Source: a virus
Length of the DNA: 64,000 nt
IMG/VR virus record: IMGVR_UViG_3300050821_002957
Location: 15,192 to 79,191 of that record
Direction: 5' to 3' (one strand)
The first letter of the stretch is position 1, and every line of letters begins with the position of its first letter. Of this stretch, positions 5,174 to 60,588 are shown piece after piece. The position numbers and the translations under genes are program-made. The notes under the pieces were generated by a model that had not been told where the DNA came from, ran no database searches, and saw only the letters and a list, made by a program, of their open reading frames with translations.

Positions 5174-5664
5174 TATAAAACTCGAATTTGTTCAATAAAA
5201 CTTTGAATTTGCTCTTTGCTCGACTCAGTATTTCTAAGCAAATCTAGCAAATATTTTATCTGTGCTTTACCTTCACTGATGTCGATGATGATCCCGTACA
5301 TGATGTGGGTTCCAGGATACACTCGACCAGTCGCCCGGACCCACATCACCTTGTCTGAACCAATCGGTGTGACTCGATATTCGGCGACATACTCGGTGAC
5401 TTCTCCGGTTAAAATTTTGTCGATACGCTTGCGAATAATTACTACATCACCTGAGTCAACTTGATCAAGATAACGATCCAATGTGATTTCTTCTACGTCG
5501 TTGTAGCCCATTAAATGCCGTAAGACACTGTTCCAACGAGTTTCATTCTTGTCGATATCAAATGCGAACGTACCAATTTTTGAACTCTCACATGCCATCA
5601 ACAATTGGTCAGCGGTCATTTGTTCGATAAGTTTAGGCATAGAGGTATTTAGAGTTAGCACCAA
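5173..5664 (-). CDS. hypothetical late protein
   Basis: ATGA overlap with the downstream gene; a CTCTAAATACC late motif lies 5 nt upstream of the ATG. Confidence 0.5.
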   Translation of the reverse strand: MVLTLNTSMPKLIEQMTADQLLMACESSKIGTFAFDIDKNETRWNSVLRHLMGYNDVEEITLDRYLDQVDSGDVVIIRKRIDKILTGEVTEYVAEYRVTPIGSDKVMWVRATGRVYPGTHIMYGIIIDISEGKAQIKYLLDLLRNTESSKEQIQSFIEQIRVL

Positions 5665-5667
5665 ATG

Positions 5668-5700
5668 AAAAAGCCCACCAAGATTTCTCTCAGTGGGCCT
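5668..5700 (-). terminator. rho-independent terminator after the major capsid gene
   Basis: GCCCAC/GTGGGC 6-bp stem (5673-5678 and 5693-5698) followed on the minus strand by TTTTTCATTT. Confidence 0.5.
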
Positions 5701-5729
5701 TAATGCTGATCTCGAAAAGCAATTCCAGG

Positions 5730-7043
5730 TTACTGGAGGTTTGCAATCTTGACGAGGCGGTAGTACGGGTTGCTGGTTGCGGTGATTGCACCAGTGCTGT
5801 TTGTGTAGTAAGGATTTGCTACCAAGCCATAACGGGTTTTGAAACCAATCTTCGGCTGGAACGAATTCTCACCAACTGCACGGACCATCTGCAACGGAAT
5901 GTATGGGCAGTAGAAGAAACCTGCGTCATACGGCGAGCTACCCTTGTAACCGACCATCATAAGTTCGGTATTCAAGTCGCCAGTGTTGTTGAAGTACGGA
6001 TCGATGAAGACCTTTGTGTTGTTCTTGAGAACGCCAGCGAAAGTGTTTCCTGTGTCATCGACATTGAGGTTCGTTGCGAGAGCAGGTGCATAGCTCAAAA
6101 TACCTGTCATTGCGAGTGCCGAAGCTACGTCGCTGGAGCAGATAATGAAGTTACCCTTGCCTCTACGAGTCTCACGAGCGATCTGGTTAGCATCACGCTC
6201 GACTTGGAACAACATACCCTTGAACTTTTCTTCCAACCAACGGCCATTGGAATCTGTGTCAAGATCAAACGTGCCAGGGGTCGTTACCGACTTCTGAGCA
6301 CCCGGCTTTGCGATGTAATACAGAGTACGGATGATCTCACGATTGATTTCTGCAAGGATTTCAGTCGAGAGGATGTTTGCCAACTCTGTTTCAGCATCCA
6401 AGCCATGAATTGCCTTCAAGTCTTGTGCCAATTCCATCGTGTATTCTGCTTTCAATGCACGGCTGTTGGCAGTGACCGTAACTTTGTCAATGCTCAATGC
6501 CATTTCATTGAATGCGAAACCGACGCCATCACCCAAGGCTTCTGCCTGACCTGTGGTCATTGCAATACCTGTGGTGTATGGAGACAAGAACGGATCGCTG
6601 CCCTGCGCCTGAACGTATCCAGACATACCGGACTGACGACCTGCAAAGTCTGTGTCAGCTTCGTTGAAGAATGCTTCGTTGTTTGCTACGCCGTTTGTGA
6701 TCGAAGAAGAACTCATCGTGCTGTACTTCGAGCGCATTGCGAAGATCAATCCCGTAGGACCAGTCATCGGCTGTACGCCACAAACGTCATATGCAATCAA
6801 GTTAGGCATTGCACGACGAACGAGACTGATCAAAATCGGGTCCCATGCGCCAACGTTGCCAGAACTGATGTTGTTGGTCGGTGCCGCTTCCATCAATTGC
6901 TGCTTTTCTTCTTTGATTGCTCTCTGCTGGTTCTCAAGAATCTGGATAGTCACATCACGACGGTGACTGTCAGCAATCTTGGGAAGAGCTTCATGGTCGA
7001 TAACTACTGACCATTTCTGTCTTAGGTTTTCGGAAATATTCAT
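5730..7043 (-). CDS. 23: major capsid protein, T4 gp23 family
   Basis: LVRRAMPNLIAYDVCGVQPMTGPTGLIFAMR corresponds to T4 gp23 MVRRAIPNLIAFDICGVQPMNSPTGQVFALR; the C-terminal GFKTRYG is conserved. Start taken at MNISEN, preceded by GGAGAGAGACGGTAT. Confidence 0.9.
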   Translation of the reverse strand: MNISENLRQKWSVVIDHEALPKIADSHRRDVTIQILENQQRAIKEEKQQLMEAAPTNNISSGNVGAWDPILISLVRRAMPNLIAYDVCGVQPMTGPTGLIFAMRSKYSTMSSSSITNGVANNEAFFNEADTDFAGRQSGMSGYVQAQGSDPFLSPYTTGIAMTTGQAEALGDGVGFAFNEMALSIDKVTVTANSRALKAEYTMELAQDLKAIHGLDAETELANILSTEILAEINREIIRTLYYIAKPGAQKSVTTPGTFDLDTDSNGRWLEEKFKGMLFQVERDANQIARETRRGKGNFIICSSDVASALAMTGILSYAPALATNLNVDDTGNTFAGVLKNNTKVFIDPYFNNTGDLNTELMMVGYKGSSPYDAGFFYCPYIPLQMVRAVGENSFQPKIGFKTRYGLVANPYYTNSTGAITATSNPYYRLVKIANLQ

Positions 7044-7084: not shown

Positions 7085-7118
7085 TATTTAGAAGCCGCCG
7101 TATTTTCACACGGCGGCT
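7085..7118 (-). promoter_or_regulatory. late-promoter-like CTTCTAAATAG motif with an adjacent perfect 8-bp hairpin, upstream of the capsid gene
   Basis: tatttag at 7085-7091 on the plus strand (CTAAATA on the minus strand); hairpin AGCCGCCG-N10-CGGCGGCT at 7093-7118. Confidence 0.45.
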
Positions 7119-7130: not shown

Positions 7131-8645
7131 TTAGTCCTTCTTACCCATTTTTGAGATGGTCTTTGTATACACATCCATCTCACCGGATACTGGTGCATTG
7201 GTCTTTGCTGATTCCATCAAAGGTTGCTCTTCTTCTTTCTTAGGAGCGCCCTTCTTTGGGAAATAGCTTTCTTTGAGAGTGTTGAGCTTCTCGGCAAATT
7301 CCTTGCGAGTGGTGTACTCGACGCCTTCTGCCAACTTCTTCAACTTCTCACGCTGCGTATCTGCCAAGCCGCTGGATACTGCACGGACAACTTCTTCCTT
7401 GCGGTATGCATTCAAACTTGCACGCATCTTTACGTTCGATTCGACCGACTCATTGAGCTTTGCTTCAAGAGTGCTGACCTTCTTTCCGAGGGTTGCAAGA
7501 ACATCAACTTTGGACTCAGGAACTTCGATGTAGTGTTCGACAAAGAGGTTCTTCAAGCCCTTGATAAAGTCTTCTGCAAGTTCGGCACGAATGCCACGCT
7601 CGACAGCCAAACGATTTTCCTTCATCCAGTTCTCGACGACGTAATTGAGGTAGTTGTCAACCTGTCCAGTCAACTTCTGCTCTGTGATTGCCAGCTTCTT
7701 TTCAGAACGTGCCTTCAATACAGCAAATGCTTCCTTCAACTTCTTCGTTGCGACCTTCTGGACACGCTGCTTCTCTTCGTTCACACGGCGAGTTACAGCA
7801 GCCTTGTAGATCGTGGTTGCCTTGGTCTTTGCAGCTTCGGACAACTTGGTGCCTGCGAAAATTGCGTTAATGTCTTCGGCGACCGATTTCTTGTCGTCGT
7901 TCTGATCAGCAGTACCAACCGAAGAGTCAGCCGAAAATTTCTGGTTCGGTGTCTTTGCGCCAACTGCTGGTCGGGTCAACTTGTCAGGGGTGTCAAGCAT
8001 CGAGTCAACATCAGGAAGAGTCTCATCCGGCGTACCGAAATCATCGTCCGAATCCTTCAAGCTGGTCTCGCCTTCTTCTTCCTCAGCGACCTTAATTCCA
8101 GGTGCCTTGCTGACGAGCTTGTCCGGGGACTCCAACTTTGAATCGACATCAGGAAGAGTTTCATCGGGAGTACCGAAGTCATCATCCTTGTCCTTCAAAC
8201 TTGTTTCGCCTTCTTCCTCTTCACCAAGACCGTCTTTGTGAGAATCAGGACCGTTGTCGCCTTCCTCTTCCCCGGCTGCGTCTTCGTCTTCACCTTCAGC
8301 TAACTTTGCAAGAAGAGATGCAAAGGTTTCGTCAAGGTCATCCTTCTCGTCCTTGTCGTCTTCCTTGTCCTTGCCATCGCCGTCTTCTTCGTCTTCGCTC
8401 ATGCCATCAAGACCGAAACCCTTGGTGATCGGCTCATCTTTTGCTGCATCATCGACACCGATTTCGCCGACGCCTGGAACCGGCCATGCCTGCGGTACGT
8501 GTGCTTTCTGTACATTCTTTGCGTAGTCCAGAGGGCCTTTCAGCGTAGCGCTGGGTGAAGGACCGCCCACGATTTCATAGGCCACTTCCTCATTCAAGTC
8601 AGACTTGTTGAGGATGTCCAAAATTTTGTCTTCAATTCTTCCCAT
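7131..8645 (-). CDS. 22: prohead core scaffold protein (gp22-like), highly acidic, with an internal ~40-aa duplication
   Basis: Position between the gp21 and gp23 homologues; D/E-rich; C-terminal coiled-coil-like region. Start taken at MGRIEDK, preceded by AGGAGA; the track's start at 8696 is probably too far upstream. Confidence 0.6.
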   Translation of the reverse strand: MGRIEDKILDILNKSDLNEEVAYEIVGGPSPSATLKGPLDYAKNVQKAHVPQAWPVPGVGEIGVDDAAKDEPITKGFGLDGMSEDEEDGDGKDKEDDKDEKDDLDETFASLLAKLAEGEDEDAAGEEEGDNGPDSHKDGLGEEEEGETSLKDKDDDFGTPDETLPDVDSKLESPDKLVSKAPGIKVAEEEEGETSLKDSDDDFGTPDETLPDVDSMLDTPDKLTRPAVGAKTPNQKFSADSSVGTADQNDDKKSVAEDINAIFAGTKLSEAAKTKATTIYKAAVTRRVNEEKQRVQKVATKKLKEAFAVLKARSEKKLAITEQKLTGQVDNYLNYVVENWMKENRLAVERGIRAELAEDFIKGLKNLFVEHYIEVPESKVDVLATLGKKVSTLEAKLNESVESNVKMRASLNAYRKEEVVRAVSSGLADTQREKLKKLAEGVEYTTRKEFAEKLNTLKESYFPKKGAPKKEEEQPLMESAKTNAPVSGEMDVYTKTISKMGKKD

Positions 8646-8724
8646 TTTTGTGTGTCTCCTGGTAAACCAGATATTTCTAGAGGTATTTAGAAGCAAATTG
8701 ATTTTGGTGGTGTAGATCGAAGTG

Positions 8725-9318
8725 ATGGATATCGTCTATATAGTGGTACGAATGATGACACTCGAAACACTTGAATCGGAATGGCATGAAGGAAACGAAA
8801 AAGCATTCTCTGCCTATGGAAGAACCAGTCACATCAAAGCTCTATGGCGCTGCTCTAAATGCGGTCATGAGTGGCAAGCTACAAAAAGTAATCGAGTAAG
8901 CAAGGGTAGTGGATGTCCTAAGTGTAGAAAACAAAATTTCAAAGGTTCCAGCAATCCAAAATGGACAGGTTACGGTGAAATCAGTGGAAAGCAATGGTCA
9001 GGAATTCGACGTAATTCTATTCAACCATTTGAAATTACTATCGAATATGCCTGGGAACTGTTTCTCATACAAAACAGAAAATGTGTTTTCACTGGTAGGG
9101 AATTAACAGTAAGCACAGCATCACTAGACTGCATAGACCTATCTAAAGGCTATGTCGAAGGTAATGTCCGATGGATCGATAAAAGATTGAATAACATCCT
9201 ACCAGACGAAACCTTTATTGCGTTATGTCAAGAAGTAGCTGCCTACCAGACCAAGAAAGAGTTGGAAGAGCGAGGCATTCCTTCGTTTACAGAATGGAAA
9301 TCGAAAGGTTCTTCATGA
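8725..9318 (+). CDS. free-standing HNH-family homing endonuclease (zinc-ribbon plus HNH)
   Basis: WRCSKCGHEW...CPKCRK zinc ribbon and SLDCIDLSKGYVEGNVRWI HNH-like motif; opposite strand to the flanking head genes, inserted between gp21 and gp22. Confidence 0.6.
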   Translation: MDIVYIVVRMMTLETLESEWHEGNEKAFSAYGRTSHIKALWRCSKCGHEWQATKSNRVSKGSGCPKCRKQNFKGSSNPKWTGYGEISGKQWSGIRRNSIQPFEITIEYAWELFLIQNRKCVFTGRELTVSTASLDCIDLSKGYVEGNVRWIDKRLNNILPDETFIALCQEVAAYQTKKELEERGIPSFTEWKSKGSS

Positions 9319-9979
9319 AAGCATCAAACGACTCCATCATCTCTCTTTCGGATGGAGCTTTCTTTTTGAACTGCTTCTGAATGGTTGCAACCTGAGCTTC
9401 GACTTTGGTGTTCTTCTGGATCTTTGCTTCGGTCAAAATGCCGCCGCTCCAGACCCACTCTTTGCCTTCCATGATTCCTTGGACAAATGCTGAGGGCGCA
9501 CTAGGATCAGCTACAATGTCAGCAGCGGTCGCAAGATAGAAATCGTCCTGGACTTCTTGGATGCCAGAATCGTTTTGTTTCAGGCTCCCCATGCCACGGC
9601 TAGAGACACCTAATTTGACGCCAGCATCCATTAAGTTCTGGACGATTTTGCCATTTGGTGTATTGAGAATTTTTGCCTTGCCGATGAAGTTGTTGCCGTC
9701 ACGATAAAGTTCGGTAATCAAGTGGCTGACCTTATCGAGATTTAAAGTCGGCCCGTCAGGATGTCCCAATTCTCCGAGAGCACGATTCTGAGATACGTAG
9801 GCTTGATGATAACGGGAAACTTCACGCTCTAAAATATCGATTGGATAAACACGACCATTACGATTTTGAAGATTGGCTTGAAGGAAGACACCTTGGATGT
9901 GATATGACTTATTAGGTCCGTTGCCTTCGGTGACTGCTTCGACAATGATGTTTTCGTTCTGCTCACAAATTAGCTTCAT
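9287..9979 (-). CDS. 21: prohead core protease, T4 gp21 family
   Basis: GELGHP and GVSSRGMGSL correspond to T4 gp21 GELNHP and GVSSRGLGSL. Start taken at MKLICEQ, preceded by AGAGGATAAT. Confidence 0.85.
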   Translation of the reverse strand: MKLICEQNENIIVEAVTEGNGPNKSYHIQGVFLQANLQNRNGRVYPIDILEREVSRYHQAYVSQNRALGELGHPDGPTLNLDKVSHLITELYRDGNNFIGKAKILNTPNGKIVQNLMDAGVKLGVSSRGMGSLKQNDSGIQEVQDDFYLATAADIVADPSAPSAFVQGIMEGKEWVWSGGILTEAKIQKNTKVEAQVATIQKQFKKKAPSEREMMESFDAFMKNLSISIL

Positions 9980-13217: not shown

Positions 13218-13253
13218 GAATATAGCTCCCCTAAAGATAGATATTTATGACAA

Positions 13254-13721
13254 TCAATGAGTTGCGGTGTTCGTGCTGACATATGCCACCAAACATCTGG
13301 CAAATTCAAGTACATCGGAATCAGCGTACTTATTTTTGCAAGTATTGTAGATCCAAACTACCAATTGACAATTATCCGGGGTATAGCCTTTGGTTCTGTC
13401 AATTCGATCAATACTAGGGGCACATTTCGATTCCGTGGTCTCTCGATCAAACAGCATTCCGGTTCTTTCACAATGACCTTTTTCTAATCTGTCAATACAC
13501 CACTGACGGTCGATAGTGACCTCCAACCCACTTCCTTTGGCTCGAAATTTAGCACCACTGATTAGTTTACTGGCTTGTCCCTTAACAGTTTTTCTGTATT
13601 TTTGTAGGGATTTTTTGTGGCTCTCTTTATAACGCTTATTAGTACGTTGATATTCCTTCATGTACTCTTTCATACGAGCGTTGACTTTGGCCTTTTTTGC
13701 TTCGGGACTCTTTTTCATCAT
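13254..13721 (-). CDS. HNH-family homing endonuclease (paralogue of 19615-20127)
   Basis: APSIDRIDRTKGYTPDNCQLVVWIYN motif; about 45 % identical over the C-terminal half to the protein encoded at 19615-20127. Confidence 0.55.
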   Translation of the reverse strand: MMKKSPEAKKAKVNARMKEYMKEYQRTNKRYKESHKKSLQKYRKTVKGQASKLISGAKFRAKGSGLEVTIDRQWCIDRLEKGHCERTGMLFDRETTESKCAPSIDRIDRTKGYTPDNCQLVVWIYNTCKNKYADSDVLEFARCLVAYVSTNTATH

Positions 13722-13751
13722 CGCAAGATATTTAGCGATGTATTGAAAGAC

Positions 13752-51986: not shown

Positions 51987-51992
51987 TTACTC

Positions 51993-52401: not shown

Positions 52402-52402
52402 C

Positions 52403-52594
52403 ATGAAACAATTTCTCCATCTTTCTCTTTCCGGCGACGAAGTTGCTGCGCTCATCATGATCACGCATCAAGCCAGCCAGACAACCTTCATGGATGCTAA
52501 GACCCGAGCCGCCGTCCAACAACTAGGCCAAAAAATCTACAACAAGGCTGGAGTGGACGTAGACAGCACCGACTTACCACTGGGAGATTTTTAA
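52403..52594 (+). CDS. hypothetical small protein
   Basis: TAACATG coupling. Confidence 0.35.
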   Translation: MKQFLHLSLSGDEVAALIMITHQASQTTFMDAKTRAAVQQLGQKIYNKAGVDVDSTDLPLGDF

Positions 52595-52920
52595 TGAAAA
52601 AGTGTCTGACCTGTGATCGCAAGCTGACGCCGCCGACAAGTGTGCCTCGATGGAACAGAGAAACACTGGCGGAATCAAGCCGCAAATTTTACGACGAACA
52701 AGTTGCCACACGCCAAACTGAAATCGCCGACGAAAAACTTGGTCTGTACGGCGAGAGTCAATTCTGCAACAAAGAATGTGCCGCTTTCTTCGGTCGCACT
52801 GCCGTCGCAATTTTCGCTCACATGGACTTCATGCCGCCGACCTTTGCCGAGCGCATCACCATGATTCAGAAACTTGCGGAGCGCATGTTCACCTGGGTTC
52901 GAGAACGGAAGACCAAATGA
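52594..52920 (+). CDS. zinc-ribbon-containing small protein
   Basis: CLTCDRK...CNKEC. Confidence 0.4.
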   Translation: MKKCLTCDRKLTPPTSVPRWNRETLAESSRKFYDEQVATRQTEIADEKLGLYGESQFCNKECAAFFGRTAVAIFAHMDFMPPTFAERITMIQKLAERMFTWVRERKTK

Positions 52921-53183
52921 CCCTCGCCGAAATAATGCCCTACGAATTCATTCGTGGTGAATACAACGATACACCTGCGTACTTGCTGAAAGACTGCCCG
53001 GTGAAGTCTGTTCACTGCATGGTCAAGGATGGTGAGCACTATAAGCGCTGGCCGGGACCGCACAAGAACGTTGTCACCTGGGTAGTGCTCGACAACGGCA
53101 AACTGGTAGGATGGAACGAAAACGTCGCTCGTGGCTGGAGCTTCCCGGTCCTTCCAGCACGACCGTGGTTGATCGAGGAATAA
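52917..53183 (+). CDS. hypothetical protein (start MTLAEIMPYEF)
   Basis: ATGA overlap. Confidence 0.4.
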   Translation: MTLAEIMPYEFIRGEYNDTPAYLLKDCPVKSVHCMVKDGEHYKRWPGPHKNVVTWVVLDNGKLVGWNENVARGWSFPVLPARPWLIEE

Positions 53184-53184
53184 A

Positions 53185-53412
53185 ATGGAACCAATCATCA
53201 TCACTGGCACTGTAGGAGACATCAGCACCGAAGATAGTGGCGCTGCGAAGATTGCCGATCTGGACGACGAAGAATCGACCGGCAGTCCTGAATTTTTCGT
53301 GCGCCTGCAAAGTTATAACGACAATTTTGATAGCACCGACAAGCAAATGCACCCGACGATGGATGCGCTGGCCGGAAAGAAAGTTCGCATCACCGTGGAG
53401 GTAATCGAATGA
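53185..53412 (+). CDS. hypothetical small acidic protein
   Basis: GAGGAATAAA Shine-Dalgarno-like sequence. Confidence 0.35.
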   Translation: MEPIIITGTVGDISTEDSGAAKIADLDDEESTGSPEFFVRLQSYNDNFDSTDKQMHPTMDALAGKKVRITVEVIE

Positions 53413-53586
53413 CCAAATTTTTTGTTATGTGGACCGGAGTGGTCGAAGTCGAAGCAGAGACACATAAAGACGCAGTTGCTTTGGTCAAGAATGATCCAGA
53501 GCGTGTGCTTCATGAAAGTCAATATGGTGCTTCAGATGGAATTACTAGTTACTCTGAGAAACCGGGGCCAATGGCATTCTCATGAA
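53409..53586 (+). CDS. hypothetical small protein (58 aa)
   Basis: ATGA overlap with its neighbours; below the track cutoff. Confidence 0.3.
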
Positions 53587-53803
53587 ACTCGTCCAAAAAA
53601 TGCACAAAGGCGAAATTTGCTGGTTCGCCATATTCGACAACTATCCTAGATGCAATTCTTGGCTTATCGGACGAGTCTGGAAGATGCCAACTGTAGCCGA
53701 TGCTATGCGAATTGTGAACGCTTGGAAAATTCTGGTGATCGATGGACGCCCGTATTACTTCGACAAATGGCGTACAAACACCCGGAAAGCATACGGCACA
53801 TAA
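53582..53803 (+). CDS. hypothetical small protein
   Basis: Last gene of the plus-strand block; ATGA overlap with the previous gene. Confidence 0.35.
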   Translation: MKLVQKMHKGEICWFAIFDNYPRCNSWLIGRVWKMPTVADAMRIVNAWKILVIDGRPYYFDKWRTNTRKAYGT

Positions 53804-53833
53804 AACGCTCCCAGGACATTTCGACATAGAAAA

Positions 53834-53859
53834 GGCCCATCGGTGTCATCCGGTGGGCC
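53834..53859. terminator. 10-bp hairpin between convergent gene blocks; a U-tract on the minus strand (terminator for 53897-56347), weaker on the plus strand
   Basis: GGCCCATCGG-tgtcat-CCGGTGGGCC; the minus-strand RNA continues TTTTCTATG. Confidence 0.55.
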
Positions 53860-53896
53860 AAAATCGTTTATAGAGCGTTTCTGAGCGAAGAAAAGG

Positions 53897-56347
53897 CTAC
53901 TTGGTGAAGTCTGAGAGCTTCATGTTGTCGCCCTGATCCTTCACAAATGGCTTCTTTGCTGCCCCACCATGCTTTGGACAGTTGCCGCCACCCGTTCTGT
54001 AAAGACATTTCTTGTCGCCGCAATACAAATGTGGATTCTTTTCTTTGTTGAGTCGAACTTTCATTGCTGTCGAGTCCCGACCGGCTTCAGCCAAGACAGC
54101 TTTGAGCAGATTCATGTTCACTTCTTCGTAGTATGTTCCGCCCTGTGCGCCTCTGACTCGCTTCAATCCAAGGCTCGTCAGCGCATTATGTCTTGCTTTT
54201 GCATTTCCGGCACTCTTTTTACGAGATGCAATTTTGTTTAAGTGTTGATCAAGAGACTTAGCCGAGCTTCCTTCGTTCGGCGTCAAGCTCTTATTCGGAC
54301 CACGATGTTTCCAGCTTCCTTCTGGTGAAAGATGAACTGACGATGTGTCCTTATGACGATATGTCGAATAGTGTTCTGGATCGCTACTGACGTGACTGTA
54401 ACCATGCTTCTTCAAAACCTCATGATGTTGAGCATTGTACATCGCATGGTGTTCCATTTCCGATTCGTCAAACCGTTCTTTGTACTTCGCTGGTTTATCC
54501 TTTTTCGACCGGATGACTTTCTTTGCAGGTGGCATTCCGACCGCAGCTTTTGATCTACGCTTCATGTCTTCCGGCGTATCTTTGATCGTCATCGTATTGC
54601 TTTTGAACTTGGCGAACTTATTCTTGCCTTCAGACACGTCACCTTTCCAGAAACCAGGATGATGTGTACCAACTTTCTTTTCGTACTTCTCTTGATCATC
54701 TGCATCGGTTGGATGAATTGCTGTTCCGAAAGATCCGTGCTTGACGTGGAGCTTCGATCCATCATGATGACGATATTCTGGTGTCTTATTTTCGTTCGAT
54801 CCCATGTACATGTAATGCTTATCGTCCGAATCCTTTCTGATTAATGGATGCAAAATCGGCTTATCGACACTATGATCATAGTATCTGGTCTCATCGACTT
54901 TTTTGATCGACCCCCAAGCAGCAGAGTCTTTCATCTTGGCTTTGTCGTTGTCGGCGAGGAGCTTCTTATCCGGGCACGGCATATCAACAGCGTGCATTCT
55001 TCCACAGGCTTCACACTTCTCTAGCTTGTTTGCTCTTTGGATGTCCTTCGAGTCAGCTTCTTTTAATTTTTCCCAACCAGTCTTCGCTTTTTTTCGTGCT
55101 TCCTGTCTACGTTCGTTAGCTTTTTCAACATCATCGTCGGACCACATTTCTGGTGTGCTCTTACGATAAGAATCATACGGCGGATAACCAGTTTTGAGAT
55201 GCCGTGTGCGCTCTTGCGTCTTGACATCCGGGTAACCTTCAGTGACAAGCTCATGATGCCATTCATGCCCACCATTTCCCTTTTGTGCAGCGGCTTGACG
55301 ATTCAAATGATCGACATAATCTTGTGGCTTCGGATACTTGTGCTGTACGTTTCCACCAAATTTTTTTGGGAGTTCATGGAAACGATCTTGGTGAGCAATG
55401 CTGTGCAAGTGATCGTTGGTAATGTCAGCAGTACGGCTCTTTCCAGTCGGAACGTGAGTAACTTTCATTTTACCAAGAACAGCCTTGTCATTACTTGTTG
55501 ACTCCTTCAATTCTGCCTTATGCATTTTTGCTTGCTTGTCGTGATGATTCCAACGATTTACGTTAGGTTGGAAATTGGAGCCTTTAGGTGGTTGCGGAGC
55601 AAATTCACTACCTCTCGCTTTCAAATGAGCATTCATTGCCGAACGATGATCTTCTGGCTTGTTAGTTTTGTACGCCAGTCGAGTTGCTTTAGCTGCTAAA
55701 AGAGAATGTCCAGGATTTGCATCTGATCCAATCTCAATAGAGCCATTGCTAAATCCGCCACTTTCATTAACATTGTTCTCTGGGCCGAGCGCACGAGCAG
55801 TGTGAATCGACTGAGGATGATCAGTAGTAGGATGACGGTCGCCGCAGACTGCACAGTGAGTGCTCTGATCTGCTTCTTCAACCTTTTTGACTCGACCACC
55901 ACCATGACAAGTATGACAATCCGTAGCGTCATTCTTGCCTCTGAGTGAACCAACACCATGACACGTCGGACAAGGAGTGTATCCAGGTGCAGCCGTCCAT
56001 GAATTGGTGTGCTTGCTGGCATCTTTCACCCATGCGGTAGCTTCTGACAAAACATTTTTTAACAGAACTTCGGTCTCTTCTCTAACAGTGTGAAAGCGAG
56101 TGTCATGACCGGCTTTTTTCATAGCTGTCTTTGCTGCCTTTTCGGTCGCAGCATGAACGGTATCTACGTGTCTGTTGCTGGTCATGTCAATAACTCTCCA
56201 CGGCTTCTTTGGCGTATTCTCTTTTTCATGCACATGAGTCACATCGCCATAGTCACCAGTAGCGTAGGCTGTATCGTTTTTGAAGCGATGAGCCATACTG
56301 GTCATTTGGGTGTCCGCTTGATTCTTGCGCTTTGAAGTATAGTTCAT
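53897..56347 (-). CDS. giant His/Lys/Asp-rich low-complexity late protein (816 aa) with DnaJ-type CxxCxGxG zinc-finger motifs and further Cys pairs
   Basis: CPTCHGVGS...CHTCHGGGR...CAVCGDRH; CEACGRMH...PCP; C-terminal CGDKKC...CPKHGG. TAAATG junction with the upstream gene. Confidence 0.6.
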   Translation of the reverse strand: MNYTSKRKNQADTQMTSMAHRFKNDTAYATGDYGDVTHVHEKENTPKKPWRVIDMTSNRHVDTVHAATEKAAKTAMKKAGHDTRFHTVREETEVLLKNVLSEATAWVKDASKHTNSWTAAPGYTPCPTCHGVGSLRGKNDATDCHTCHGGGRVKKVEEADQSTHCAVCGDRHPTTDHPQSIHTARALGPENNVNESGGFSNGSIEIGSDANPGHSLLAAKATRLAYKTNKPEDHRSAMNAHLKARGSEFAPQPPKGSNFQPNVNRWNHHDKQAKMHKAELKESTSNDKAVLGKMKVTHVPTGKSRTADITNDHLHSIAHQDRFHELPKKFGGNVQHKYPKPQDYVDHLNRQAAAQKGNGGHEWHHELVTEGYPDVKTQERTRHLKTGYPPYDSYRKSTPEMWSDDDVEKANERRQEARKKAKTGWEKLKEADSKDIQRANKLEKCEACGRMHAVDMPCPDKKLLADNDKAKMKDSAAWGSIKKVDETRYYDHSVDKPILHPLIRKDSDDKHYMYMGSNENKTPEYRHHDGSKLHVKHGSFGTAIHPTDADDQEKYEKKVGTHHPGFWKGDVSEGKNKFAKFKSNTMTIKDTPEDMKRRSKAAVGMPPAKKVIRSKKDKPAKYKERFDESEMEHHAMYNAQHHEVLKKHGYSHVSSDPEHYSTYRHKDTSSVHLSPEGSWKHRGPNKSLTPNEGSSAKSLDQHLNKIASRKKSAGNAKARHNALTSLGLKRVRGAQGGTYYEEVNMNLLKAVLAEAGRDSTAMKVRLNKEKNPHLYCGDKKCLYRTGGGNCPKHGGAAKKPFVKDQGDNMKLSDFTK

Positions 56348-58099
56348 TTACTTCTTCTTGCCCACCATGCCCACGTTCCACTTAACGTGTTGTTTGCATT
56401 TTTCATTCGGATGTTCAGCAGCAACCTTTCCACAATTGTTGCAAATTGGATCTTTGAGCTTCTTCTTTTGATCGGCTGTCAAACCTTCCGCCATCAACTT
56501 GGCGTACTCTTGTGAAATAGTTACCGACTCAGTTTTGACTCCACCCGGTTTGTCGCCCGGAAAGCCAGTTTTCTTTTTTGCTGCGGTATGCTTTACGTAA
56601 TTCTTCTCGTCAACCAAACCAGGAGTGCCATGTTTGCCGCCCATATTGAGAACCCACCCGCCATGACTAGAACGCATGACAGCTTTGCCTCTTTGTGTTT
56701 GACCTTGAGGAGTTTTGATGTGAACTGTGTCACCGTGACCAATTTCATTAAAGGCTTCGACGATTTCTTCTTCGGCCATATCATTGTGCGAGTCTGGTCC
56801 ACTGTAATGCTGACACATTGGGCTGTGCTTCTCATTATCATGGCAAGAGCTTACGCAATCTTTGGTTGGTTTGAATTTTCCAACAGCAAGTCCTTGAGAA
56901 CGAGACGACCGCATAAGTGCTGCTTTGTCGTCAGAAACGTCTTCTACGATTGCACTAACTTTTTTTTTAGGATCTACAGATTCCATAAGACCGGCCACTT
57001 CAGCACGGTGTTTGATGTAACCAGCAGCCGCAGCAATGATCGGATCGACTTCTTCATTCTGAGAAGCAGTATCGTTCATTCCCTTCATGCGATTATTGGC
57101 TTTTTGAATTGCCTTTGGTCCCTTGTCTTCCGGGTCGGCCTGCATGTTTGAAAATGCATTCGCCGGATTGTACATAATTGCTGATGCATGTGAGATCACG
57201 TCCGCATCGCCACCAGGAGTCTGTGGATAAGCAGTAGGAATGTGAGCCTGTTGTGTCACACCGAAATCATCAGCTTCATTCTTTGATGTTGGGCACATGC
57301 ACATCGAGCCATTGCAAGATTTCGGCATATTACCACTGGAGCCACCACATGTCGGGCAATAGCTGCATGGACAATTTTTTGTGGTACAAGTATTTTTTGC
57401 TTTCTCATCTTCAGTCATACCGACCATTGCATCATTGGCATCTTGAAAATTTGCAGCTTCACCCTCGTAGGTTGCGCCTTCTGGGTTATTTGCATAATCA
57501 GCTTGAGGATTGTTGAATCCAATCTCACCTTCGCCCATAACACGCTTTATTTGTGCTTGTGCTCTACGACGCTTCGGGACAACTTTGTTTGCAACTTTGT
57601 TTACGACGCCCTTCATCTTATTCAAAATTTCGCCTTCATAAGTTGCGCCCTTTGGATTTTTTGCATAATCGGCTTCCGGGTCTTTGAATTCAATGTCGGT
57701 CTCACCCATCATGTCAGGAGAGGAAGACTCTTCATCTTCACCAAGAGAATGATGATTCTTGGCTGCGCTCTTCATAGCCTTTGCGCCGTACTTTTCTACA
57801 CCGACCTTGTGAGCGATGGCACCTGCGTAAGCAGCACTCTTTCCACCAGCTTCGAGCTTACCTACGAGCTTCTTGAAACCAATATGCTTCTCAGCTACGA
57901 AGACTTCTACTAACTGTTTTGCCGTTTCAAACGCAATGCCCTGTGCAATACGAATGCCCATACGTTGCTGATTGTTATTGTACACCGATTCATAGATGTC
58001 GTTGACTTCCTTACGAACATCTTCAGGCAAAGAAGCGTAAGCCGGATATTTTGCAATGTCATTGGTCTCGACATCGTTCATGTTTCTAAAAAAGCTCAT
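56348..58099 (-). CDS. giant charged low-complexity late protein (583 aa) with Cys clusters and a C-terminal zinc-knuckle-like CNNCG...H...C..H
   Basis: CPCSYCPTCGGSSGNMPKSCNGSMCMCP; duplicated segment ADYA(K/N)NP(K/E)GATYEGE; late CTCTAAATACGAC motif about 30 nt upstream. Confidence 0.6.
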   Translation of the reverse strand: MSFFRNMNDVETNDIAKYPAYASLPEDVRKEVNDIYESVYNNNQQRMGIRIAQGIAFETAKQLVEVFVAEKHIGFKKLVGKLEAGGKSAAYAGAIAHKVGVEKYGAKAMKSAAKNHHSLGEDEESSSPDMMGETDIEFKDPEADYAKNPKGATYEGEILNKMKGVVNKVANKVVPKRRRAQAQIKRVMGEGEIGFNNPQADYANNPEGATYEGEAANFQDANDAMVGMTEDEKAKNTCTTKNCPCSYCPTCGGSSGNMPKSCNGSMCMCPTSKNEADDFGVTQQAHIPTAYPQTPGGDADVISHASAIMYNPANAFSNMQADPEDKGPKAIQKANNRMKGMNDTASQNEEVDPIIAAAAGYIKHRAEVAGLMESVDPKKKVSAIVEDVSDDKAALMRSSRSQGLAVGKFKPTKDCVSSCHDNEKHSPMCQHYSGPDSHNDMAEEEIVEAFNEIGHGDTVHIKTPQGQTQRGKAVMRSSHGGWVLNMGGKHGTPGLVDEKNYVKHTAAKKKTGFPGDKPGGVKTESVTISQEYAKLMAEGLTADQKKKLKDPICNNCGKVAAEHPNEKCKQHVKWNVGMVGKKK

Positions 58100-58132
58100 T
58101 GTATAGGTCTCCCACGTAGGTGCTAGTCGTAT

Positions 58133-58723
58133 TTAGAGTTTTGACAACCTACAATGTCTGCTATTAAACATTTTTTCTTTTGTAGTTTCTGACAAAATTT
58201 TCCCTTTATGAGCACGACCGATAGCTGCTTTGGCTTCATCTGAGTGCGAATAGGTCATTCCAACTGCGTACTGATTTCCTCTCATCTGTTCCCGTTTTCG
58301 TGCCCGACCTTCTTCAGTGAGCTTTGCTTGCTTTGCCCATTCAGCGGCCTGGAGTCTGGCCTCAGGATGTTTTTGAAAGTAAACCACCCTGCACTCTCGA
58401 AGTTTTTGTTTAGTCGCTTCAGAATGTTTGTGACCGTAACCTTCACCACCCGGCTTCATGTTATAGCCTGTTTCTATTGTGTTGAGTTTAACGATCCAAT
58501 CTCGTTCTTTCTGATTGAGTGATTCTTTATCAGTAGCGACATCTATTGTTTCGATCAGAAAGACTTCAGAACCATATTTTCGGATCGCACGATGAATGGT
58601 AGTTTGAGAGCCTTTTCGTACTTCTGATTTATGTTGCTGAAATCGCTTCATTGCAGTAACCATCGTTTTGCCAACGTACTGCTTTCCATTGATTGTGTTT
58701 GTAAGAGTGTAAATAATCATCAC
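58133..58723 (-). CDS. GIY-YIG homing endonuclease (Seg/I-TevI-like) with NUMOD3-type repeats
   Basis: IYTLTNTINGKQYVGKT...R...H...N GIY-YIG core; HSEATKQKLRE and HSDEAKAAIGRAHKGK NUMOD3-like modules. Confidence 0.7.
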   Translation of the reverse strand: MMIIYTLTNTINGKQYVGKTMVTAMKRFQQHKSEVRKGSQTTIHRAIRKYGSEVFLIETIDVATDKESLNQKERDWIVKLNTIETGYNMKPGGEGYGHKHSEATKQKLRECRVVYFQKHPEARLQAAEWAKQAKLTEEGRARKREQMRGNQYAVGMTYSHSDEAKAAIGRAHKGKILSETTKEKMFNSRHCRLSKL

Positions 58724-58750
58724 TCTTATATAGGCTCAATGAAGAATTGA

Positions 58751-59494
58751 CTACCCCATGATAAAATCTATAGGCAATTGGAATTCGTCGTGAACTTGCT
58801 GTTCTAACTTTTCGATATTGTCGAGTGCTTTTTGGTAAATGTCGGCACCGTTTAAAGTTACACCACCGAGCAGGGCAACTCCTTGATATTTAATCAGGTT
58901 CTCACCCCACTGACGCCGTAGCAATTCAGTCGTATAGGCCATCAGCCAACGATCTCGATAGACATCTGGGTAAACATCCGGGTCCAAAATTCTATAACAT
59001 TCAATAATGTAGTAATCGCCGACAGAGACCGACGACCAATCCAACAGAATGCGAAGTTGCATCTGGTGACGAACAAACAAGATACCAGGGTCCGCATTGA
59101 ACTCAAATTCCAAGAGTGCAAGATGCTTCTGCATGATGTCGTAGTGAATGATCGATGTACTCGTAAAAGTATACAAGTCATTCAAGCGCATCTGATATTG
59201 AACGTCGAACAACCCGATGTTGCTGGCATTTGAATTTGCAGTCGGCAAAACACGAGTAACAGAGATGATCGGGGCCGGAATCGGAATGTACTCATTTGTA
59301 ATATCCTGAGCCGTCATTTGATGGGCAAGATACACTCTTTCTACGCCGTCGAAGTGATAGTCTTGAAAGTAGAGAAAGGCATCATCTACACGGTCTTCAA
59401 TTTGCCCTGGATCGAGGTTAATTTCGATTACAGGAGCACCAAGTCTACGTAAGCAATAGTCGATCAGTTCTTGTCGGTTTGTTGGTAACGCCAT
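58751..59494 (-). CDS. 13: neck protein, T4 gp13 family
   Basis: CLRRLGAPVIEINLDPGQIEDRVDDAFLYFQDYHFDG corresponds to T4 gp13 [37 protein letters not shown]; C-terminal LLGGVTLNGADIYQKALDNIEKLEQQ corresponds to [26 protein letters not shown]. Confidence 0.8.
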   Translation of the reverse strand: MALPTNRQELIDYCLRRLGAPVIEINLDPGQIEDRVDDAFLYFQDYHFDGVERVYLAHQMTAQDITNEYIPIPAPIISVTRVLPTANSNASNIGLFDVQYQMRLNDLYTFTSTSIIHYDIMQKHLALLEFEFNADPGILFVRHQMQLRILLDWSSVSVGDYYIIECYRILDPDVYPDVYRDRWLMAYTTELLRRQWGENLIKYQGVALLGGVTLNGADIYQKALDNIEKLEQQVHDEFQLPIDFIMG

Positions 59495-59502
59495 ATCACT
59501 AT

Positions 59503-60588
59503 TTATTGCCAGCTTACTAAGGTAACAGAAGTAGACAAACCAGTTCCAGTATCAGGGCCAACAAAAAATCCTAACGTTGCAGGCATTCCAGTGTATGTGG
59601 TCCTAGCCAGTGTTCTGAAAGGTAGAAAAACCAAGCCATCCATTGAATAGGTGTATGTGATGTTTACACCATCGTCGGAAACTCTGAACCACATTATTGG
59701 CCCTACATAGTTACCGTTCGGAGCAGTTGCATCTAAACCACCCCAACTATTTGGACCACTCCAATGTTCTGTTGCTAACATATAATTGGTGGTTCCTTGA
59801 TTCACCAATCCCATGCTGAAAAATGCTCCCGTTGAATCTGAGACCATAATACCTAAATTAGACCAGGCTCCGTTCGATTGAGCTAACATGAAACCGGCTG
59901 TTCTTGTATATGGTGTAGACGGCAAAGGAATTGTAGCACCTACAATCATGTTACAAGATGATGCTGTTCCAGTCAGAGTCATAACTCCATTCGTCACCAA
60001 AGTTCCAGCACCACCACAATTACCTGCCAAATTCAAAGGAGTCCACGAAAGGTTGCTAGGAAGAGTTACCGGAAAACCCAACACCCAATCTGCCCAAGTA
60101 AAACCATCGCATTCACTTACATCTGGTATATCAGTTGAATAATACAGAGCACCTGCGGAAGCACATGTAGGACGAGCAGAAAATGTTCCTCTAGTAGCAC
60201 TGGAGCCTCCTCCACCACCACCGGAAGCATTGATCGTAATGCTCGCTAGACCACCGCTAAAAGATGGTGTAAGGGAAATACCAGAACCAGGAACTAAATT
60301 AAAAGTCGTAGCCGTACCCACAGCGGAACCATTACTCTGAATCGGCAAAGAACCAGGAGGCGTAGCAGTGATAATGGTCTGATTGTTTACAGAATCGTCG
60401 GTGCAAGTCGTGCCAGTGCTACAGTTCAACACAGGTCTTGGTGTTAACATGCTACCTGCATTCTTGATGATATAATATGCAGCCTGTGTGATCCCACTTC
60501 CTTTGACTTCAAGATTGACTGCCGCAATCAATACCATAATGCTAACGATGAATGCGATTGTATGTTTGATGTTGAACCGATTTTTCAT
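59503..60588 (-). CDS. structural-region protein with an N-terminal transmembrane / signal-anchor segment
   Basis: MKNRFNIKHTIAFIVSIMVLIAAVNLEV; Gly/Thr-rich beta-type composition. Confidence 0.5.
   Translation of the reverse strand: MKNRFNIKHTIAFIVSIMVLIAAVNLEVKGSGITQAAYYIIKNAGSMLTPRPVLNCSTGTTCTDDSVNNQTIITATPPGSLPIQSNGSAVGTATTFNLVPGSGISLTPSFSGGLASITINASGGGGGGSSATRGTFSARPTCASAGALYYSTDIPDVSECDGFTWADWVLGFPVTLPSNLSWTPLNLAGNCGGAGTLVTNGVMTLTGTASSCNMIVGATIPLPSTPYTRTAGFMLAQSNGAWSNLGIMVSDSTGAFFSMGLVNQGTTNYMLATEHWSGPNSWGGLDATAPNGNYVGPIMWFRVSDDGVNITYTYSMDGLVFLPFRTLARTTYTGMPATLGFFVGPDTGTGLSTSVTLVSWQ

Follow-up and report, generated by a model that had tools for sequence, protein, structure and literature searches.

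A putative CTAAATA-type late promoter box, often adjacent to the start codon, in a T4-like phage

Distribution of the box

The window analysed here is a stretch of phage DNA of 64 kb, in which PHROGs and Pfam matches confirm the genes of the major capsid protein, scaffold, portal, tail tube, sheath, large terminase (TerL), gp13, gp14 and gp15. The heptamer CTAAATA occurs 21 times, with 19 copies on the minus strand and two on the plus strand; dinucleotide-preserving shuffles predict 4.72 +/- 2.34 copies, and the observed number was reached in 0 of 100 shuffles. Eighteen of the 21 copies are located at -60 to -1 of gene starts, a zone comprising 3.4% of the strand-specific positions (hypergeometric p=4.7e-24), and an unbiased k-mer test identified CTAAATA as the most enriched 7-mer of this zone. 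With the variant ATAAATA included, [A/C]TAAATA is found at most 100 nt upstream of 21 of the 51 minus-strand genes between 4103 and 63740, and of three plus-strand genes. This is considerably fewer than the "nearly all" minus-strand structural genes proposed in the earlier note; the remaining minus-strand genes belong to operons, in which the stop codon of one gene often overlaps the start of the next. The genes downstream of the boxes include those of the capsid, scaffold, portal, tube, sheath, terminase, gp13 and gp14, and the strand of the box is always that of the downstream gene. The 24 sites define the 7-bp box [C/A]TAAATA, in which TAAATA is invariant and the base assigned to -12 is C in 20 sites and A in four, and no conserved element was found in the -35 region. 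The TAA of the box doubles as the stop codon of the upstream gene at 8 of the 24 sites, and a hairpin or terminator-like structure immediately precedes some boxes.

Most of the minus-strand boxes are followed by a predicted leader. The capsid box (7085-7091), immediately preceded by a GCCGCCGT...ACGGCGGC hairpin, is separated from ATG 7043 by a 41-nt leader with GGAG, and it is also kept in the metagenomic relatives L253, L255, L256 and L258. The scaffold box (8684-8690) has a 38-nt leader with AGGAG before ATG 8645, and an ATAAATA box at 13242-13248 has a 24-nt leader with GGAG before ATG 13217 of a 599-aa gene; L001, L002 and L004 keep both ATAAATA and GGGAGAGCTATA at the latter site. The tail tube box (17151-17157; 22-nt leader with AGAGGA, ATG 17128) is kept in L001-L005. 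The sheath box (19612-19618; 49-nt leader with AGGAG, ATG 19562) provides with its TAA the stop of an HNH gene (19615-20127), and the same dual use can be observed at 22531-22537 (22-nt leader with AGGAGG, ATG 22508; stop of gene 22534-23862), at 32907-32913 (39-nt leader with AGGAG, ATG 32867; stop of gene 32910-33971), at 43057-43063 (13-nt leader ggaaaggaaaaat, ATG 43043; stop of the gp15 gene, 43060-44112; box kept in relatives) and at 58130-58136 (30-nt leader with GGGAG, ATG 58099 of a 583-aa gene; stop of a GIY-YIG gene, 58133-58720). The large terminase box (21831-21837) has a 27-nt leader with GGAG before ATG 21803. The box at 40345-40351, kept in L083 and L085-L088, precedes ATG 40328 by a purine-rich leader of 16 nt and lies within the small terminase gene (40331-40828), at its 3' end. 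Two further CTAAATA sequences are candidate boxes: that at 60676-60682, within the 3' end of gene 60591-62189, has an 87-nt leader with GGGAG before ATG 60588, and that at 63512-63518 lies 61 nt before ATG 63450 of a tail-fibre-like gene, 63450 being the likely true start; the product begins with the hydrophobic N-terminus MKKLLLLAF. An ATAAATA at 29418-29424, 55 nt before ATG 29362 of a 934-aa gene and with no clear Shine-Dalgarno (SD) sequence, is a weaker candidate.

At seven minus-strand sites the start codon follows the box almost directly, and none of them has an SD sequence. These are 5646-5652 (5 nt to ATG 5640), 13729-13735 (7 nt to ATG 13721 of an HNH/EndoVII-like endonuclease gene), 15949-15955 (9 nt to ATG 15939 of the portal gene), 26545-26551 (9 nt to ATG 26535 of the gene of a 325-aa structural protein), 30729-30735 (5 nt to ATG 30723 of a 420-aa gene), 44853-44859 (6 nt to ATG 44846 of the gp14 gene) and the ATAAATA at 59500-59506 (5 nt to ATG 59494 of the gp13 gene). 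The gene at 5640 encodes 155 aa and lies just downstream of the capsid gene, and a 14-bp terminator hairpin (5670-5701) precedes its box; a start at 5664 had been assumed before, with respect to which the box would lie downstream on the minus strand. The TAA of the box at 30729-30735 is the stop of gene 30732-31940, and that of the gp13 box is the stop of gene 59503-60588. A possible weak variant, CTATATA, is located at 58727-58733, 6 nt from ATG 58720 of the GIY-YIG endonuclease gene, with similar sites at 34808-34814 (7 nt to 34800) and 23880-23886 (17 nt to 23862). The CTAAATA at 20626-20632 lies inside the TerL reading frame, where it encodes part of ..ATKYN.., and it is probably kept by protein coding and not as a promoter.

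The three plus-strand boxes are likewise close to their genes: CTAAATA at 48571-48577 (7 nt to GTG 48585 of a DUF2786-like gene, a match below the Pfam cutoff), CTAAATA at 49075-49081 (5 nt to ATG 49087, encoding an 86-aa protein with a hydrophobic N-terminus) and ATAAATA at 49344-49350 (4 nt to ATG 49355, encoding a 170-aa protein with a signal-peptide-like N-terminus). The homologues of the 48585 gene in L087 and L088 have CTAAATA, 7 nt and then ATG. The second of these boxes overlaps the preceding gene at its TAG stop, and the TAA of the third is the stop of gene 49087-49347.

All the sites given in the earlier note exist, including those before 48585 and 49087, although the sheath box and the 32867 box had each been placed one nucleotide too high (19613-19619 and 32908-32914) and the box before 49355 is ATAAATA, not CTAAATA. 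Sites absent from that note are the CTAAATA copies at 60676-60682, 63512-63518 and 20626-20632, and the ATAAATA copies at 13242-13248 and 29418-29424.

Spacing of boxes and early promoters relative to start codons

The distance between box and start codon is bimodal in the window: 10 sites fall at 4-9 nt (4, 5, 5, 5, 5, 6, 7, 7, 9 and 9 nt), in good agreement with the previously proposed 5-9 nt, and all of them lack an SD sequence, whereas 14 sites fall at 13-87 nt, of which 12 have one, mostly GGAG. Across the close relatives of the lineage the spacing histogram has a sharp peak, with 17 sites at 5 nt versus one at 4 nt and four at 6 nt (p=6e-8), and control motifs gave no peak. The short-spacing boxes of the lineage span 23 independent gene families, whose starts are ATG or GTG only. 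Moreover, the spacing is constant within families (7,7,7; 5,5,5; 5,5,6; 9,9) despite differing spacer sequences. The box of the L004 homologue of the 26535 gene is likewise 9 nt from the start, the gp14 box in L083, L087 and L088 lies 5 nt from ATG or GTG, and seven relatives have the portal box at 8-12 nt with no SD sequence. For the portal, gp13 and gp14 genes, homology at the N-terminus settles which codon is the start.

Boxes are kept at orthologous sites in the metagenomic relatives L001-L005, L083-L088 and L253-L263, and relatives with 62-85% protein identity keep the box while the flanking sequence has diverged. In more distant, cyanophage-like relatives ATAAATA is found at the same places with a strand bias of 313:22. 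The spacing in the distant relatives sampled is mostly 15-40 nt, and in 68 of them the gp13 box lies 10-35 nt upstream, often with AGGAG; short spacing is 4-fold commoner in the lineage than in these distant relatives (Fisher p=2e-10).

A comparable geometry can be observed at the predicted early promoters of the lineage, which have the sigma-70-type form TTGACA-17/18-TAnnnT. ATG begins exactly 6 nt after the -10 hexamer in 15 of 54 cases and 7 nt after it in two of 54 (p=3e-12), and only one other start codon, at 9 nt, was found between 4 and 20 nt. In the window, this arrangement is represented on the plus strand by TTGACT-17-TAGGAT with an extended -10 (45439-45467; 6 nt to ATG 45474 of a Ku-like gene), TTGACA-17-TAAGAT (46461-46489; 6 nt to ATG 46496) and TTGACA-17-TACACT (51958-51986; 6 nt to ATG 51993). 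A fourth predicted early promoter, TTGACA-17(TGc)-TATTTA (44830-44858), ends 5 nt before ATG 44864 of an RNA 2'-phosphotransferase gene; it is divergent from the gp14 gene and shares its -10 hexamer with the gp14 late box on the opposite strand, the TAAATA of the latter being the reverse complement of TATTTA.

The early promoters lie one nucleotide farther from the start codon than the boxes do (6 nt versus 5 nt), which matches the known positions of the two elements, -12 to -7 for a -10 hexamer and -13 to -6 for the T4 late box. With either distance, +1 would coincide with the first base (A or G) of the start codon, and leaderless mRNAs are therefore likely to arise from both late boxes and early promoters. 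The peak at 5 nt in the lineage, the conservation within families and the matching early-promoter peak at 6 nt all strengthen the leaderless reading suggested before. Sites with a spacing of 7-12 nt, such as that of the portal gene, would produce leaders of 1-6 nt and would not be strictly leaderless. Box-adjacent genes could also be translated from read-through polycistronic transcripts.

Comparison with known late promoters and alternative explanations

The T4 late promoter TATAAATA, at -13 to -6, is recognised by gp55 together with gp33 and the gp45 clamp. The box described here resembles it in being a single A/T-rich, -10-like element with a TAAATA core and no -35 element, present in many copies upstream of virion genes, with a 3' end that we place at -6. 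It differs in that 20 of the 24 sites have C at -12, where T4 has adenine, so that the substitution affects the second position of the T4 box and not, as had been stated, the first; in addition, the T of T4 at -13 is not conserved, and 10 of the 24 boxes abut a start codon, whereas T4 late mRNAs, as far as they have been characterised, have leaders with SD sequences. In Aeromonas phage Aeh1 (Nolan et al. 2006, PMC1524935), the late consensus is the identical 7-mer, CTAAATA at -12 to -6, located before genes orthologous to T4 late genes, and the C at -12 is the strong determinant; the passages of that study consulted make no mention of a fusion of late boxes to start codons. By capsid protein, the nearest isolates of the present phage are not Aeromonas phages but Methylophilales, Pelagibacter, cyanobacterial and Stenotrophomonas phages (59-63% identity), and the C variant therefore probably arose independently of Aeh1. 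Judged by their capsid and portal proteins, cyanomyoviruses, whose late promoter is NATAAATA (S-PM2, Syn9; PMC2984593), fall into the same wider group of phages; they carry the box upstream of the same structural genes, and some metagenomic members of their group also use CTAAATA. In that group, however, A predominates at -12, the spacing is typically 15-40 nt with AGGAG, and the 5-nt peak is smaller (47 of 1397 boxes, mostly before gp3).

Taken together, we consider it probable that [C/A]TAAATA serves an uncultured T4-like phage as its -10-like late promoter element, read by a gp55-type factor and giving leaderless mRNAs at the short-spacing sites. The strand-specific box without a -35 element, its position before virion genes, its conservation at orthologous sites and the Aeh1 precedent are all in line with the late-promoter reading of the earlier note. 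By analogy with T4, host RNA polymerase would carry a phage gp55-type specificity factor late in infection, which would read the box without a -35 element and start RNA at the sixth nucleotide after it, the box occupying -12 to -6. About 24 such promoters would drive the minus-strand virion genes and three plus-strand genes. At 14 of them the transcript would have a leader of 13-87 nt, usually with a GGAG-type ribosome-binding site; at the other 10, where the start codon lies 4-9 nt (mostly 5 nt) past the box, the mRNA would begin at the AUG or GUG or no more than a few nucleotides from it and be translated without a leader. The early genes of the lineage would share this design, with TTGACA-17/18-TAnnnT exactly 6 nt before ATG.

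One alternative explanation concerns the nature of the factor. Homologues of gp55, gp33 and gp45, for which a search had been suggested, were found neither in the 64-kb window nor in about 200 kb of lineage loci: tblastn with DLP6 gp55 found nothing in the window, a gp55 HMM built from nine sequences, run against all the six-frame ORFs of the window, reached no better E than 1.3, and no sigma-like Pfam or PHROG match was obtained among the window proteins scanned. In DLP6 the capsid gene is followed by a uvsY-uvsW-gp55-gp47-gp46 block, which is absent at that position here, and cyanophage-like relatives have gp55 4-5 kb downstream of the capsid gene. The box might be a promoter read by another phage sigma or specificity factor, or by a phage-remodelled host sigma-70 holoenzyme in a "-10-only" mode, as in Thermus phages. 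The T4-superfamily phage PhiM9, which lacks gp33 and has an RpoE-like sigma (PMC4621102), offers a precedent. Additionally, T4 gp55 holds the flipped -12 adenine in a deep pocket (PMC7892883), and since the -12 base here is C, the cognate factor must either differ from gp55 at this pocket or be a different protein. Nevertheless, a reader unrelated to gp55 seems unlikely to us. The search covered 64 kb of a genome found on contigs of more than 200 kb; gp55 is present in many related contigs, and every cyanomyovirus sequenced is reported to have it (PMC2984593). In its invariant TAAATA core and its predicted -12 to -6 position the box agrees with gp55-type boxes, and Aeh1, with the same CTAAATA, encodes a diverged gp55 (PMC1524935).

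Two further explanations question the promoter role at some or all of the sites. At the 10 short-spacing sites the box takes the place of the missing SD sequence, and it might act there on the mRNA as an A/U-rich, non-Shine-Dalgarno element for ribosome recruitment, instead of or in addition to being a promoter. We regard this as very improbable, because 14 other genes, most of them with their own SD sequence, have the same box at a distance of 13-87 nt, and the 5-nt peak is one nucleotide wide, which is sharper than the tolerance of SD-type spacing. Moreover, the early promoters have the same geometry with variable -10 hexamers (TAGGAT, TAAGAT, TACACT and others) and TTGACA 17-18 bp upstream, which is a signature of transcription, and a -10 motif 6-7 bp before ORFs in Deinococcus was experimentally identified as a promoter and not a ribosome-binding site (PMC12340547). 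Even less weight can be given to the idea that the motif marks a site of RNA processing or cleavage, or that it results from base composition or coding, for instance from the context of TAA stops. The eight boxes that supply a stop codon and the TerL copy conserved through coding would be expected on this account; yet no stop codon is involved at 16 sites, the C before and the ATA after the TAA vary no more than the TAA itself, the shuffled sequences never reached the observed count, boxes occur in intergenic DNA after terminator hairpins, and a stop-codon context does not explain a fixed 5-nt register across 23 gene families.

Returning to the promoter reading, the geometry has counterparts among bacteria. 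Leaderless genes of Deinococcus-Thermus and mycobacteria have a -10 element 6-7 bp before the ORF, no SD sequence and AUG or GUG starts only (PMC12340547; PMC4633059), and the early promoters described here show the same 6-nt geometry. Unlike in those bacteria, the ORF-adjacent design is joined here to a late box of the T4 type; it occurs in a T4-like myovirus with a GC content of about 46% and coexists with leadered genes that have a strong GGAG. Among phages, leaderless expression of the middle and late genes of Thermus phage phiYS40 was reportedly described by Sevostyanova and co-workers in 2007. CTAAATA as such is already known as the late consensus of Aeh1 (PMC1524935). What appears to be new is that about 40% of the boxes, together with early promoters of the lineage, are positioned at the distance from the start codon that would be expected for leader-free mRNA.

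Probable late boxes of the window and the genes that they precede

The heptamer CTAAATA occurs 21 times in the window, 19 of them on the minus strand, whereas 4.72 +/- 2.34 copies are expected from shuffled sequences and none of 100 shuffles reached 21, so that chance or base composition was rejected as its source. Every 7-mer was then counted, strand-specifically, in the 60 nt upstream of the starts of the 81 called genes, and CTAAATA was by far the most enriched word, with 18 of its 21 copies located in 3.4% of the positions (p = 4.7e-24). It was followed by overlapping versions of itself, by the ribosome-binding word AAGAGGA and by TTGACA. The motif that the earlier note had described upstream of genes is thus real.

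The window (64 kb) derives from an uncultured T4-like myovirus of about 46% GC, whose gene identities were obtained from PHROGs and Pfam. The minus strand encodes the major capsid protein (5730-7043), scaffold (7131-8645), prohead protease (9287-9979), portal (14089-15939), tail tube (16580-17128), sheath (17178-19562), large terminase (20124-21803), small terminase (40331-40828), gp15 (43060-44112), gp14 (44112-44846) and gp13 (58751-59494). A plus-strand block with sigma-70-type promoters (44864-53412) is opened by the gene of an RNA 2'-phosphotransferase (44864-45406) and contains that of a Ku-like protein (45474-46394). The genes downstream of the boxes are those of the capsid, scaffold, portal, tube, sheath, large terminase, gp13, gp14 and tail proteins, i.e. 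the boxes lie on the same strand as, and upstream of, virion (late) genes, as expected of a T4-type late promoter.

The box positions listed previously were correct overall apart from two one-base slips (the true sites are 19612-19618 and 32907-32913), and five sites can be added to them: CTAAATA at 60676, 63512 and 20626, and ATAAATA at 13242 and 29418. Because its box sits downstream of 5664 on the minus strand, the gene previously placed at 5664 must begin elsewhere, and its true start is the ATG at 5640. Three plus-strand genes do have a late box, as had been proposed; the one before 49355 is, however, ATAAATA and not CTAAATA. The claim that nearly all minus-strand structural genes carry the motif was too strong, because [A/C]TAAATA is found at most 100 nt upstream of 21 of the 51 late-strand genes, in addition to the three plus-strand genes; the late-strand genes without a box of their own sit in operons. 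The plus-strand genes with late boxes (48585-49867) code for a DUF2786-like protein, whose match is below the Pfam cutoff, and for two small proteins whose N-termini are hydrophobic or resemble signal peptides; they may represent a late lysis or envelope cassette within the early block.

The sequence TAAATA is invariant at 24 sites, and the preceding base, at the presumed position -12, is C in 20 of them and A in four. This A/T-rich, -10-like box matches the core of the T4 late promoter TATAAATA, which spans -13 to -6 (PMC1524935). There is no -35 element, as the base counts from -24 to -13 contain no conserved position save a weak pyrimidine bias at -14. Some boxes are directly preceded by a hairpin: a 14-bp terminator is located after the capsid gene (5670-5701), and the hairpin GCCGCCGT/ACGGCGGC directly precedes the box of the capsid promoter. 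At eight sites (19612, 22531, 30729, 32907, 43057, 58130 and 59500 on the minus strand, and 49344 on the plus strand) the preceding gene ends with the TAA of the box. This overlap seems to reflect a compact genome and not another origin of the motif, as no stop codon is formed at the other 16 sites. Of the words that differ from CTAAATA by one base, ATAAATA and CTATATA alone are enriched in front of genes; the latter is found there in three of its seven copies (23880-23886, 34808-34814 and 58727-58733, all on the minus strand), at 17, 7 and 6 nt from the ATG, respectively, and these copies may be weaker late boxes. The CTAAATA at 20626-20632 (minus strand), inside the large terminase gene, was rejected as a promoter; its conservation in two relatives (L002, position 1087; L004, position 5871) follows the peptide ATKYN, and this copy probably arose by coincidence of coding. 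L004 has an in-frame ATG 4 nt behind it, and an internal start for a C-terminal terminase fragment is possible.

Several other features of the gene map were observed. The gene order is unusual, the small terminase gene being about 18 kb from that of the large terminase, and gp13 and gp14 being about 14 kb apart, with two large minus-strand genes and the plus-strand early block between them (44864-58099). In the window, the region after the capsid gene lacks the uvsY-uvsW-gp55-gp47-gp46 block that relatives have there. Five successive minus-strand genes of about 300-360 aa each occupy 35201-40328; the genes preceding 36106 and 37187 resemble each other at their 3' ends, a hint of tandem paralogues that may encode tail-fibre or baseplate proteins. 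The minus-strand gene called at 62170-63537 from its longest ORF probably does not start at 63537; TAATG closes a 96-aa gene (63450-63740), and the next gene, which starts at 63450 with a hydrophobic, signal-peptide-like N-terminus, matches tail-fibre families. The structural module is interspersed with four homing-endonuclease-like genes, one of the GIY-YIG type and three of the HNH/EndoVII type (8725-9318 on the plus strand; 13254-13721, 19615-20127 and 58133-58720 on the minus strand), and two of them have a start-codon-adjacent box of their own (CTAAATA + 7 nt and CTATATA + 6 nt). Neither tRNA genes nor Rfam families were found in the window.

Distance from promoters to start codons

The box-to-start distance in the window is bimodal. 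The short class comprises ten sites, with spacings of 4, 5, 5, 5, 5, 6, 7, 7, 9 and 9 nt, in agreement with the previous observation that the box often lies 5-9 nt from the ATG. Their spacers (cctct, aaatt, gcatc, gtgat, gcagat, caagtaatt and others) have no room for a ribosome-binding site and contain no GGAG-like core, i.e. no Shine-Dalgarno sequence separates promoter and start, as expected of leaderless mRNAs, whose +1 falls at or near the start codon. The long class comprises 14 sites with spacings of 13-87 nt, and a GGAG-type core is present at 12 of them.

For the lineage, the window and 20 close loci were pooled, duplicates were removed, and the distance from the box to the first RTG (ATG or GTG) was recorded. 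The resulting peak is one nucleotide wide and lies at 5 nt (17 sites, versus one at 4 nt and four at 6 nt; p = 6e-8), and three control motifs gave no spacing peak. The 42 short-spacing sites of the lineage belong to 23 unrelated protein families; all 42 have ATG or GTG, by the search criterion, in keeping with initiation at AUG or GUG only, and orthologous sites swap the two codons. The spacing is kept within families while the spacer sequence changes: 6, 5 and 5 nt in the gp14 family, 5 nt in all three members of the GIY-YIG endonuclease ahead of gp14 (relatives L084-L086), 7 nt in all three of the 48585 gene family, 9 and 9 nt in the 26535 family, and 8-12 nt in the portal family. N-terminal homology fixes the start codons of portal, gp13 and gp14. 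For the 155-aa gene at 5173-5640 and the 420-aa gene at 29461-30723, both with a 5-nt spacing, no IMG/VR relatives were found. In L084-L086 the GIY-YIG gene is inserted between the gp14 late box and gp14 and is now in the 5-nt, putatively leaderless position; the gp14 behind it has acquired a GGGAGG site.

Short spacing is far rarer in distant relatives (69 of 718 boxes, versus 32 of 85 in the lineage; Fisher p = 2e-10), and the gp13 box, which is 5 nt from the start in the window, lies 10-35 nt upstream in 68 distant contigs, often with AGGAG. The distant set has a smaller 5-nt peak (47 of 1397 boxes), and 28 of its 65 sites with spacings of 4-7 nt precede gp3, the gene after the capsid gene. 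The arrangement [A/C]TAAATA + 4-5 nt + ATG was observed before gp3 (tail completion) in many cyanophage- or pelagiphage-like contigs (e.g. L012 at 12604, L190 at 306 and L191 at 6273), and the spacing in P-SSM2 gp3 (L333) is 15 nt. Judging from these sequences, leaderless expression of a late gene may occur more widely in this phage group.

The promoters of the plus-strand block are canonical (TTGACA-17-TAnnnT with an extended -10 TG), and for three plus-strand genes (45474, 46496 and 51993) the distance from promoter to ATG is exactly 6 nt. Early sigma-70-type promoter regions were located at 45439-45473, 46461-46495, 51958-51992, 44830-44863, 51421-51456 and, on the minus strand, 4037-4072. 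Overall, the early promoters (TTGACA-17/18-TAnnnT, often with an extended -10 TG) end 6 nt, occasionally 5 or 7 nt, before the ATG, and the same register is observed in the relatives L083-L088 and L255-L258. Among the 54 promoter matches of the lineage, an ORF-opening ATG follows the -10 hexamer at exactly 6 nt in 15 (p = 3e-12) and at 7 nt in two, and the rest of the 4-20 nt range contains none except one at 9 nt; in distant relatives the start is usually 21-40 nt from the early promoter. The genes of gp14 (ATG at 44846, minus strand) and RNA 2'-phosphotransferase (ATG at 44864, plus strand) are divergent and only 17 bp apart, and the hexamer TATTTA/TAAATA at 44853-44858 is at once the early plus-strand -10 element and the core of the late minus-strand box. 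A comparable back-to-back arrangement appears to be present in L087.

Relatives and the factor that would read the box

The nearest isolates of the window are Methylophilales phage Melnitz, Pelagibacter phages, cyanomyoviruses and Stenotrophomonas phage DLP6, with only 59-63% identity in the capsid protein. Proteins of the window recur on contigs 0.2-1 Mb long and on Logan contigs of SRR7093796. Exact 40-mers taken from the two window ends had no match in genome_contigs or metagenome_contigs, and exact-protein look-ups yielded, apart from the 9.7 kb past the window end (L251), just short Logan or ENA contigs of SRR7093796 and ERZ27253736. The close IMG/VR relatives (L001-L005, L008, L083-L088 and L253-L259) have 62-85% protein identity, and a more distant group (L260-L263 and L265) has about 70% capsid identity and 51-55% GC. 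These relatives have diverged in the surrounding sequence but keep the box before their orthologous portal, tube, sheath, capsid, scaffold and gp14 genes, among others. In L260-L263 it is almost only CTAAATA (20 copies versus one ATAAATA, in L260), and in about 300 more distant cyanophage- or pelagiphage-like contigs it is mostly ATAAATA and strongly strand-specific, with 313 occurrences on the late strand and 22 on the other strand around the portal gene. Taken together, the TAAATA core, the lack of a -35 element, the virion genes downstream and the conservation in relatives give good support to the late-promoter reading.

The adenine at -12 of T4 late promoters is replaced by C in most boxes of the window. 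In T4 this adenine is inserted in a deep pocket of gp55, where it stacks on Y97 (PMC7892883), and C at this position therefore predicts either an altered gp55 pocket or a different factor. Aeromonas phage Aeh1 departs from T4 likewise: its late consensus is CTAAATA, beginning at -12 with C as in the window, and its gp55 is diverged (Nolan et al. 2006, PMC1524935). The CTAAATA variant is consequently already known. In cyanomyoviruses the late promoter is NATAAATA, and g55, g33 and g45 are encoded by all of them (PMC2984593).

No gp55, gp33 or gp45 was found in the lineage loci examined or in the window, whose 64 kb are part of a genome represented by contigs 0.2-1 Mb long. A tblastn search of the window with DLP6 gp55 gave no match, the best hit of a gp55 HMM built from nine sequences against all six-frame window ORFs had an E-value of 1.3, and the window proteins scanned contain no sigma-like domain. 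Cyanophage-like relatives have gp55 4-5 kb downstream of the capsid gene; it was found neither within 10 kb of the capsid gene in the lineage contigs nor in the 9.7 kb past the window end (L251), and DLP6 gp3, uvsY, uvsW, gp55, gp47 and gp46 had no match in the lineage loci examined. A gp55 alignment scan of IMG/VR and GTDB genomes yielded 148 loci, none of this lineage, since their capsid-protein segments are about 50-68% identical to that of the window, versus 82-85% for lineage members. Dependence on gp55 is thus proposed by analogy, from family membership and the shape of the box.

Probable leaderless transcription and its meaning

Six nucleotides separate +1 from a -10 hexamer, which spans -12 to -7, and five separate it from the T4 late box, whose last base is at -6. 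The 5-nt late peak and the 6-nt early peak would therefore both make +1 coincide with the start codon's first base. Although indirect, this geometry is good evidence for leaderless mRNAs among the early as well as the late genes of the lineage, and for a late box that ends at -6 as in T4. The pattern shares the signature of leaderless genes in Deinococcus-Thermus, in which a -10 motif, a promoter and not a ribosome-binding site, is fixed 6-7 bp before the ORF (PMC12340547), and it matches the rule in mycobacteria, where AUG or GUG is required at +1 and nothing more is needed (PMC4633059).

The absence of gp55 from the loci searched and the C at -12 would also suit a promoter read by a factor other than gp55, which we consider unlikely given the family and the box shape. 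That the box acts as a ribosome-binding site where it adjoins the start codon, a position in which no other such site is present, is less probable still: other genes, provided with a GGAG of their own, have the same box far upstream, the spacing peak is only one nucleotide wide, and early promoters behave alike although their -10 sequences are variable and depend on a -35 element. This role was rejected. A processing site, stop-codon context or chance is the least credible origin and was rejected; the eight overlaps with TAA bring stop codons to mind, but context alone fails at the other 16 sites, and the shuffles speak against chance.

For the lineage, taken as the window and IMG/VR contigs of 62-85% protein identity, we hold it somewhat better than an even guess that most early and about 40% of late transcription units moved to leaderless mRNAs.

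The motif itself adds little, as T4-type late boxes with C at -12 were already described; the part that would matter is the promoter-to-start architecture, and the new element is likely to be a systematic fusion of late and early promoters to start codons in this lineage. We know of no report of leaderless late or early mRNAs in T4-like phages, and a full-text literature search found none. If the reading is true, a gp55-type promoter can fuse directly to coding sequence, and the 5-nt (late) and 6-nt (early) registers would provide a nucleotide-precise transcription-start map for uncultured phages from sequence only, with better start-codon calls in such genomes (e.g. 5640 versus 5664). The lineage would be expected to encode a gp55 with a re-specified pocket for -12, the position that T4 gp55 reads by base-flipping, and once this gp55 is found the residues that set -12 specificity could be identified. 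The architecture would also be a clue to the host, a bacterium whose ribosomes translate 5'-terminal AUG or GUG efficiently.
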